Below, one piece after another: positions 5,678 to 7,071 of a DNA stretch of 7,934 bases (the first letter of the stretch is position 1; every line of letters starts with the position of its first letter). The stretch is from the IMG/VR virus record IMGVR_UViG_2645727945_000001, one strand, 5' to 3'. Origin of the DNA: a virus (taxonomy: Monodnaviria > Loebvirae > Hofneiviricota > Faserviricetes > Tubulavirales > Inoviridae). Made by a program: the position numbers and the translations under genes. The notes beneath the pieces were generated by a model that had not been told where the DNA came from, did not search any database, and worked only from the letters and a program-made list of their open reading frames with translations.

Positions 5678-6874
5678 TTAAAATGGAACTGAACGATTAT
5701 AGAATTTACCTGCAATCACCTGCCGATAAACATCCGGTATTGAAAATCTAATCTTCTCATCCTGTATATCCTCATGTCTGACAATGGCAGTAAATACCGC
5801 CTCATAATCATTACCGAGAAGATGAAATAACTTTGCAACAGATTTAGAGCACTGCTTACGTAACCAGTGAACATTATGTTCCAGTGCATTAATTGCCTTT
5901 TTTTCGTCCGCTAAGTCAGGACGATAAGGATTAAACTTGCGTGGTTTAGCTGGATTGATTTGTGCAGCATAATCACACAATCCCGTAAAATAACCGGCAA
6001 TATCAAGCAGTACATCAACAGGAACCCCTTTAAGCTCGACCTCAGAACGATTCCACGTACCACTGACTTTTTGTTCAAGCGCTTTATTATAGATACGCCA
6101 GTAAACACGCGATTGCCGGGAACCAAACGTGTACATCTCCTGCTTTAATAATGCGCGACCATCCCACTTACAGGAATTCGAAAAACCCGGACGCGGCCCC
6201 TTACCACTATAAAACGCGCCAGAACGATGATCGCGAACAGCTGCATCGCATGTAAAAACACCATCGAAATCATCAACAGCCAAATCAATACGCTTGAGCG
6301 TAGTAATATTCAGATGTTTCAACCATTTGAATACATCCTGAGGCTCAGTACCACTAAATACATGAGCACATCCCAGACCGGAAATCTGTATATATACCGT
6401 GTTATTGTTTCCACCCCAGAATGCAAAGCCATGTAGATTATTACCGCCATCATCAGAAAATAATGGCGCAGAACAACGATAATTAAAGCCACCACGGTCC
6501 CGTTCAGGTCCCATACTCAAACCGAAAGCACTGGATAACCAGATTTTAAGGCGATGCAAATACGCAGCCTGAACAGCCTGATTATATTGTTCAATTTGAT
6601 GTTCAATTAACGCTCTATCGCCAGAAATACCGCTACAAATTTTATCTGATTCCGCATCATCAGGAACCCAGCATCGAGTTTCAGGATCAACCACATCACG
6701 AAAGAAGGCATCACGACCGGGCAGAAAATCACGCAGACGCGGCATGGAACCATACTTACGCCAGAACTGAATAGCACCGTCGAAAGTCTCAAGATTCTTA
6801 AGCTCACTTATTGGAAAAGTGAAAGCAAGATGGTCTATGAAGACGTGACGTATGGTTTCCTGAACCGGCTTCAT
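5678..6874 (-). CDS. Rolling-circle replication initiation protein (RstA / phage CRI-type Rep, not Ff pII-like)
   Basis: 398 aa from ATG 6874 (RBS aggag 11 nt upstream; TAATG overlap with upstream ORF); ORF track gives alternative start 6904 with no SD. Contains YWRIYNK (two Tyr spaced by three residues followed by Lys) at nt 6083-6103, resembling the catalytic motif of phiX174 A-type initiators. Confidence 0.7.
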
Positions 6875-7071
6875 TAGCAAACAGTCTCCTGATAACCGAC
6901 CCATGAACCAGAAGGCAGTGCAACAGATACCAGAACGAAGTCATCCCCGATTGTTTCAACGCATGCAATGAACAGCTCATTAAATGAGCTGAAGAAATCC
7001 CATTCACCATCAATGCAGGCATTAACGCCATAATCAGGAATGTAATCGTAGTAAACAATCTCGTGAGACAT
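6874..7071 (-). CDS. Small 65-aa highly acidic protein with no Lys or Arg (hypothetical)
   Basis: [65 protein letters not shown]; 11 Asp/Glu, 0 Lys/Arg; first ORF after the predicted early promoter; stop overlaps the rep ATG (TAATG). Confidence 0.35.

Follow-up and report, generated by a model that had tools for sequence, protein, structure and literature searches.

The DNA stretch analysed here (IMG/VR record IMGVR_UViG_2645727945_000001), hereafter the window, has a length of 7934 bases. It corresponds to a single unit of an integrative inovirus prophage in E. coli, and strain E700025 carries an element of 100% identity in tandem repeats with a period of exactly 7934 bp. The structural and replication genes are all located on the minus strand, and the most upstream of them is an open reading frame (ORF) for a protein of 65 amino acids, named here as ORF65, which lies directly before the replication gene rep. 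The features at this junction are given below.

6874-7071, minus strand: ORF65, small acidic protein of 65 amino acids, identical to RefSeq WP_000017776.1 and a member of phrog_3104
6872-6876, minus strand: TAATG, in which the ORF65 stop and the rep start overlap, as seen in the sequence itself; likely translational coupling
6886-6890, minus strand: AGGAG Shine-Dalgarno-like motif for rep, within the 3' end of ORF65, from the sequence
5678-6874, minus strand: rep, a Rep_trans (RstA-type) rolling-circle replication initiator of 398 amino acids (Pfam PF02486, E 1.9e-21; phrog_453, E 5.6e-107)

The reading frame of ORF65 runs from an ATG to a TAA (7071 to 6874), and the final A of this TAA (6876-6874) is the first base of the in-frame rep ATG (6874-6872), with the AGGAG motif placed 11 nucleotides upstream of the latter. 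The product contains six Asp, five Glu and one His with no Lys or Arg, giving a calculated net charge of about -11. The initial annotation of this DNA had described an acidic ORF of 65 amino acids with 11 Asp/Glu, no Lys/Arg and a single His, being the first gene of the early operon and ending in a TAATG overlap with the rep start. The recounted composition, the overlap as seen in the sequence and the most upstream position on the minus strand, at the head of the leftward operon, are all in agreement with this description.

ORF65 is a real and conserved protein-coding gene under purifying selection. All 65 residues of the product aligned with the whole profile hidden Markov model of phrog_3104 (positions 1-69 of 69; E 8.4e-25), and protein-level homologues were found in Vibrio phages with 29-37% identity. 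Codon usage and conservation in related phages, the comparisons that the initial annotation had proposed, both favoured the frame, which had the top codon-usage score of the six frames with a composition similar to that of rep, and which is kept in related phages that carry phrog_3104 members. When ORF65 was compared with diverged copies from E. coli prophages and metagenomes (77-84% amino-acid identity), the ratio of non-synonymous to synonymous substitution (dN/dS) was found to be 0.10-0.19, and the changes at third positions exceeded those at first and second positions. In RefSeq the protein is annotated as a hypothetical protein. A hydrophobic ORF of 103 amino acids (6804-7115, minus strand), which is in the +1 frame relative to ORF65 and covers the whole of ORF65 and the rep start, was also considered and rejected as a chance ORF, because 1-4 stops interrupt it in all the 11 homologous loci (11/11); it is open only in the window and its near-identical copies.

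The position of the rep start was examined because the initial annotation had allowed that ORF65 could be a frame artefact, a chance ORF over the true N-terminus of a rep gene starting at 6904, as would be expected if rep homologues started at the equivalent codon with a conserved N-terminus. An in-frame rep ATG does exist at 6904 in the window and would give a 10-codon extension. However, the rep frame of a diverged E. coli prophage (L005) opens exactly at the overlap without any in-frame upstream extension, the Vibrio rep genes start in the same manner at the overlap, and the other rep homologues have unrelated short N-termini ahead of a conserved (V/I)xIDHLAFT motif. Inspection of the sequence ahead of 6904 found no Shine-Dalgarno motif, and the Prokaryotic Genome Annotation Pipeline (PGAP) also assigned the start to 6874. 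Since the rep homologues lack the 10-codon extension or show no conservation of it, the artefact reading was refuted, and with the homologues, the low dN/dS and the PHROG family of ORF65 also standing against it, it is almost certainly wrong. On these sequence comparisons the start of rep in the window is corrected to 6874, not 6904.

The phrog_3104 family and its association with rep

By sequence, ORF65 is a new member of phrog_3104, a PHROG family that is catalogued but functionally uncharacterised. Megablast of the ORF65 region against the phage collection gave no match, and tblastn gave weak matches in the Vibrio phages Vf33, Vf12, VfO3K6 and VfO4K68, each of them just upstream of rep; the ORF of 71 amino acids in VfO4K68 matched phrog_3104 with an E value of 1.3e-42. 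Word-indexed searches returned 7 E. coli-type and 58 Vibrio-type ORF65-like proteins. When 1.84 billion representative proteins were searched exhaustively with the profile, only 15 clusters were obtained at E<=1e-3, 14 of which have a length of 57-84 amino acids, the weakest being a 453-amino-acid protein that was matched only via short repeated stretches, and no fusion of ORF65 with Rep was seen in this search. Furthermore, a scan of representative genomes added Photorhabdus and Providencia, and a plasmid search added a Citrobacter replicative form. Searches of Pfam (no family at E<=1) and NCBIfam (no match) were negative for ORF65 and likewise for its relatives, and the literature searched on the family, on a small ORF upstream of rstA/rep and on the E. 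coli prophage contained nothing relevant and assigned no function. Inovirus sequences were also encountered on an Actinomadura monticuli contig of 8.4 kb (L106; enterobacterial type, 61% identity to ORF65, beside a Rep_trans gene) and on a Shimia sp. contig of 1.3 kb (L115; Vibrio type), and both are more likely contamination than a sign of the true host.

All the members of the first alignment (21/21) were found to be acidic, with a net charge of -5 to -13. The window protein and two of its six E. coli-type relatives are free of Lys and Arg, the other four of the six carry one or two such residues, and the Vibrio members carry three or four; thus, the lack of Lys/Arg is not a trait of the family. 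In the 21-sequence alignment G22, W24, S29 and L33 were invariant and Y7, D9, V16, D25, L47, V48, S49 and Y60 nearly so, and in a 28-sequence alignment D9, W24 and S29 were nearly invariant. The small ORFs ahead of rep in Vf33, Vf12, VfO3K6/f237 and VfO4K68 (vpf402/ORF1) occupy the same site as ORF65, 5' of and overlapping a Rep_trans rep gene, and have the same size (63-84 amino acids) and the same acidity. Apart from their low identity, they differ from the E. coli subgroup in the C-terminal third, which reads ITNTTYQER..GVFDD in the Vibrio members and has another sequence in the E. coli subgroup, and in carrying Lys/Arg, which several members of the E. coli subgroup do not contain at all. 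An acidic-aromatic tail (GVFDDF, GVFDEF or GVFDDYCN) closes many of the Vibrio proteins, in contrast to the ...GYQETVC terminus of the E. coli members, which lack this motif. The GenBank records of Vf33, Vf12 and VfO3K6 leave the small gene unannotated, as does the ORF1-10 numbering of f237-type phages (PMC10790759), and it is present in pO3K6 as re-annotated by RefSeq.

The homologue was located directly 5' of a Rep_trans gene in 81 of the 83 scorable placements and upstream of a Phage_GPA rep gene in the other two, with nine further placements left unscored owing to a truncated locus or a short downstream ORF. Most loci from the scan of representative genomes and the V. cholerae loci have the same arrangement of small gene and rep. 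The same holds for four distant members (~26-34% identity) that come from separate inovirus lineages, CTX-like and others, and make up all the cases in which the contig extended to a downstream gene that could be classified: their overlaps with a Rep_trans gene are 1, 4, 8 and 11 nucleotides. In a fifth distant member, the contig is short and the overlapped downstream ORF is unclassified. The overlap is 10 nucleotides in Citrobacter pB72D, and a stop/start overlap of 1-17 nucleotides is kept in all the lineages examined. The identity of the small protein also tracks that of the adjacent Rep across 11 lineages with a Pearson r of 0.85 for pairs that are not independent; for example, identities of 78-83% in the small protein go with 63-81% in Rep, and the other pairs were 55 and 56%, 44 and 40%, and 75 and 77%.

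In a few E. coli prophages, a homologue of the type called P0007 (49% identical, 82-84 amino acids) overlaps the start of an unrelated Phage_GPA-type rep gene. A small gene before a GPA rep was seen in L006-L008 and in TD225-C4, and P0007-like DNA was present in one (TD225-C4) of ~39 genomes matching the GPA rep. Phage L004, whose GPA Rep is 97% identical, is without the small gene and has a 9-codon leader instead; this leader (MSQSSLEGS, ~2981-3008 of L004) is in frame with Rep and reuses the start site of ORF65. Another GPA-type E. coli inovirus (L102) also has no small acidic gene, and its gap contains a second small repressor-like gene for 60 amino acids (1092-1274).

The early promoter and the immunity module

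The region upstream of ORF65 contains the predicted control elements of the operon and a divergent gene, as listed below.

7105-7134, minus strand: promoter-like site for the ORF65-rep operon, -35 TTTACA and -10 TATGAT, by consensus match only (10/12)
7094-7102 and 7137-7145 (span 7094-7145), unstranded: two CGCATGCGC repeats bracketing the promoter, probable operators
7209-7421, plus strand: putative repressor of 70 amino acids (phrog_2503), divergent, in an exchangeable immunity module

The sigma-70-like site has its -35 element at 7134-7129 and its -10 element at 7110-7105 with an 18-nucleotide spacer, and lies ~34 nucleotides upstream of the ORF65 start; the promoter scan by itself was not above chance (two sites against 1.6 expected). 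L004 and L006 have the CGCATGCGC motif in their related immunity regions as well, and the repeats probably act as operators.

The immunity module (window 7042-7431), which is made up of the repressor gene, operators, promoter and the initial 5-10 codons of ORF65, is swapped as a single block. The ORF65 body remains with rep in such exchanges, and the breakpoints cluster at 7042-7064. In E. coli AST217, the same Rep and ORF65 body are found with a heteroimmune repressor, the breakpoint being at about codon 5; AST217 and TD225-C4 both have a heteroimmune version of the module with a repressor of 66 amino acids. In L006, which has the unrelated Phage_GPA rep, the immunity module of the window is found at 99% identity up to codon 10 of ORF65, after which the sequence diverges. 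The Vibrio members adjoin unrelated DUF3693 repressors. ORF65 is thus inherited together with rep, whichever type of repressor is present.

In V. cholerae prophages next to rtxA (L103-L105, ~5440-6000), a variable gene slot is located between the DUF3693 repressor and the ORF65 homologue and contains, depending upon the strain, a 113-amino-acid protein, a 185-amino-acid protein with an RNase_T domain or a 145-amino-acid protein. This slot is a candidate accessory or counter-defence position of these inoviruses. Its layout and the DUF3693 repressors argue against an antirepressor function and also against the ORF65 homologue being the variable accessory slot itself.

Proposed role of ORF65 and the alternatives

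The most likely role of ORF65, which we hold with moderate confidence, is that of a non-DNA-binding accessory protein or modulator of the replication module that acts with the Rep_trans (RstA-type) initiator. Because it is conserved and lies directly before rep with an overlap, ORF65 looks like a part of the replication module and not like a defence-evasion add-on. The fixed link with rep, the parallel divergence of the small protein and Rep, and the independence of the immunity module speak for this role. ORF65 forms with rep a conserved two-gene unit joined by the overlapping stop and start codons, which we take as the replication module of a clade of integrative filamentous phages from E. 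coli and other Enterobacterales, of Vf33/f237-type phages and of other Vibrio inoviruses. Both genes would be transcribed from the repressor-controlled early promoter. Ribosomes would terminate on ORF65 right at the start codon of rep, so that the two products are probably synthesised jointly, possibly by termination-reinitiation. Since no stable RNA structure was detected around the rep ribosome-binding site (z +0.8) and no Rfam family in the window, such coupling, if operating, would be a simple hand-over of ribosomes without any RNA structure hiding that site.

With 11 acidic and no basic residues in ORF65 and a net negative charge in 21/21 members, the protein is not expected to bind DNA by the usual electrostatic route. 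It most likely acts through protein-protein contact and would thereby modulate the initiation of replication. The most probable partner is Rep, or else a different protein that binds DNA and has a basic surface for ORF65 to occupy. An AlphaFold2 model built from the 21-sequence alignment had a mean predicted local distance difference test (pLDDT) score of 81.6 and a predicted beta(4-11)-beta(15-20)-beta(23-27)-alpha(30-41)-beta(45-49) fold followed by a low-confidence tail (50-65). Foldseek searches of this model against PDB and BFVD gave nothing significant. The fold may weakly resemble the N-terminal domain of HicB-type antitoxins (TTHA1013, PDB 1wv8; SWOL_0700, PDB 3k6q), and the arrangement is also like that of type II antitoxin genes in that a small acidic protein is encoded upstream of, and overlapping, the gene for a potentially harmful nucleic-acid enzyme. 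ORF65 differs from HicB in having no HicA partner, the downstream gene being Rep_trans, and no DNA-binding or second domain in its 65 amino acids, and the antitoxin analogy is offered as inference only.

Several points weigh against a partnership with Rep_trans. The co-divergence was measured on pairs that are non-independent, and shared vertical descent alone would give the same statistic. The adjacency of the two genes could reflect operon architecture rather than physical partnership. With two or more different immunity modules, the P0007-type homologue has been kept intact before a Rep of an unrelated family, so the function of ORF65 may not depend on Rep_trans. In favour of the partnership, the small gene is rare before a GPA rep, and the dN/dS of P0007 against other members was 0.22-0.56, which is higher than the 0.10-0.19 given above, though this contrast is soft as dS is saturated in several of the comparisons. 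The pattern fits a loss of constraint in a remnant that became dispensable after its Rep_trans partner was replaced, and the exception can equally be read as a protein that does not need Rep_trans. Also against the partnership, no such small gene is known from CTXphi, whose RstA belongs to the same family.

The initial annotation had proposed that ORF65 could be a DNA mimic or anti-defence factor of the Ocr/ArdA kind. On this proposal, the acidic first product of a new replicative form would block a host defence protein that targets DNA, such as a restriction-modification enzyme or a CRISPR effector. ORF65 does resemble Ocr (T7 gp0.3), ArdA and AcrIIC5 in being small, very acidic and expressed first from the incoming DNA. 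Its net charge of -11 in 65 amino acids, within the family range already given, is of the strength that is necessary for such mimicry but not specific to it, and the gene is the first one after the early promoter in the E. coli phage as well as in f237. A profile search of PDB sequences brought up AcrIIC5 over 38 residues (W..S..L..C..LV.I.NT) at a marginal, non-significant E value of 0.1-0.2 (E 0.1 at best), and the small gene is apparently dispensable for a GPA-type Rep phage. However, no match to a known mimic was obtained in Pfam, NCBIfam, PHROG annotation or PDB sequences, none of the 28 family members (0/28) matched the Pfam Ocr/ArdA models, and Ocr, ArdA, UGI, p56 and AcrIIC5 were not among the structure matches listed; the proposal is therefore unsupported, and ORF65 has no significant sequence or fold similarity to Ocr, ArdA or AcrIIC5. 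AcrIIC5, a mimic of double-stranded DNA, is a 130-amino-acid protein with a four-stranded sheet and five helices (PMC9976890). It is thus larger than the beta-beta-beta-alpha-beta folded unit of ~50 residues in ORF65.

The genomic behaviour of ORF65 also differs from that of these mimics. Counter-defence genes are usually found in variable slots and have a fast turnover. ORF65, in contrast, behaves as a core gene of the replication module, fixed and vertically inherited rather than swappable; it is invariably attached to rep across Vibrio and Enterobacterales lineages and diverges at the pace of Rep, and the variable slot of the V. cholerae phages is occupied by a different gene upstream of the homologue. 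An anti-defence function is therefore unlikely in our assessment.

The next alternative is a host-directed factor with no replication or defence role, for example a modulator of a host helicase, of a client of single-stranded-DNA-binding protein (SSB), of the pilus or of cell physiology, which is merely co-expressed with Rep. A conserved protein with a predicted folded part and a predicted disordered C-terminal tail would be consistent with this, as would the persistence of the gene before an unrelated Rep family and the acidic-aromatic tails of many Vibrio members, which we take to resemble SSB-type C-terminal tips. The absence of this C-terminal motif from the E. coli members speaks against it, none of the searches indicated a target, and the model does not require the tight and long-term linkage with rep. 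We consider it improbable.

ORF65 might also serve mainly as a translational leader that delivers ribosomes to the rep start, its peptide having little function. Leader peptides that couple translation to plasmid rep genes include tap of R1 and RepY of the IncI/IncB plasmids, and ORF65 is like these in its shortness, in the overlap of its stop with the start of rep and in the rep ribosome-binding site that lies within it. The conservation of the stop/start overlap in all lineages, the location of the rep Shine-Dalgarno motif inside ORF65 at a rather long spacing of 11 nucleotides, and the 9-codon mini-leader in place of the gene before the GPA rep of L004 would agree with such a role. In contrast to tap and RepY, ORF65 is longer, is predicted with confidence to form a globular fold and has no detected regulatory RNA structure, the rep ribosome-binding site being unsequestered (z +0.8). 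Purifying selection has preserved its amino-acid sequence, with identities down to ~26-37% among members of Vibrio, enterobacterial and metagenomic origin. Coupling could well take place, but this protein-level constraint would be left unexplained by it, and a mere leader is hence quite improbable.

An antirepressor or switch protein binding the divergent repressor, as RstC of RS1 does, would suit a small acidic product encoded beside the repressor/operator region, and the C-terminal tail of the repressor is basic (...EELKKKKAM). This role was rejected on the independence of ORF65 from the repressor type and is very improbable: the same ORF65 body occurs alongside heteroimmune repressors, homologues occur alongside unrelated DUF3693 repressors, and the recombination breakpoints split ORF65 from the immunity module and leave it with rep.

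ORF65 shares single features with Ocr/ArdA, AcrIIC5, HicB antitoxins and rep leader peptides, among them the charge, the overlap and a possible weak fold resemblance, but is not assigned to any of these groups. Going beyond the preferred role as a modulator of the replication module, one could speculate, with low confidence, that phrog_3104 proteins are a hitherto unnoticed class of nucleic-acid-mimicking, co-translated partners of HUH rolling-circle initiators, which would occupy the DNA-binding surface of the RstA-type Rep and gate nicking in the manner of an antitoxin or of a separately encoded counterpart of Ff protein X, or that they are the first DNA-mimic anti-defence proteins described in filamentous phages. 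The replication module had previously been described as rep followed by a single-stranded-DNA-binding protein gene, with the small gene before rep omitted. A conserved gene attached to rep is a candidate for an extra layer of control on RstA-type rolling-circle replication, and its carriers include medically relevant inoviruses such as f237 of pandemic Vibrio parahaemolyticus O3:K6, V. cholerae prophages by the CTX/rtxA region and, in diarrhoeagenic E. coli, prophages with dif/hipA as their region of integration. If ORF65 is a Rep modulator or a DNA mimic, it would be a new component of inovirus biology; if its role is only minor, the finding would amount to an ordinary clean-up of annotation.

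Other features of the window

The remaining genes of the minus-strand block are as follows.

332-1591, minus strand: secretin
1588-2646, minus strand: Zot/pI
2658-2945, minus strand: DUF2523
2963-4594, minus strand: pIII-like
After the pIII-like gene, minus strand, in order: ORF of 56 amino acids, coat protein, putative single-stranded-DNA-binding protein of 111 amino acids, rep and ORF65 (most upstream)

A long (Gly-Ser/Gly-Thr)n tract is encoded in the pIII-like minor coat gene (~3286-3700), and because of it the other frames and the opposite strand show lengthy ORFs that are spurious.

The junction of the tandem copies carries the inverted repeats AACAGTGCGCACAATG and CATTATGCGCACTGTT (window ~7910-7925 and ~60-75; L001 10311-10326 and 10395-10410), which resemble the XerC arm of dif, and a perfect 14-nucleotide hairpin AAAAGGCCGCTGCG is found between them (window ~4-17 and 29-42). 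Judged by sequence, the repeats and the hairpin together look like a folded attP of the CTXphi type for XerCD integration. The exact E. coli dif sequence is absent from the window. The AST217 prophage adjoins hipA, the neighbourhood of which we take to be the dif region.

The stretch of ~280 nucleotides that follows the repressor gene (7437-7700) contains no convincing gene and includes a segment of higher G+C. A G+C-rich hairpin CCCCCGTGTTACAAGACGGGGG at ~7510-7531, followed by TTTAT, could be the terminator of the repressor gene, and the segment spanning 7554-7696 is 89% identical in the GPA-type phage L006.

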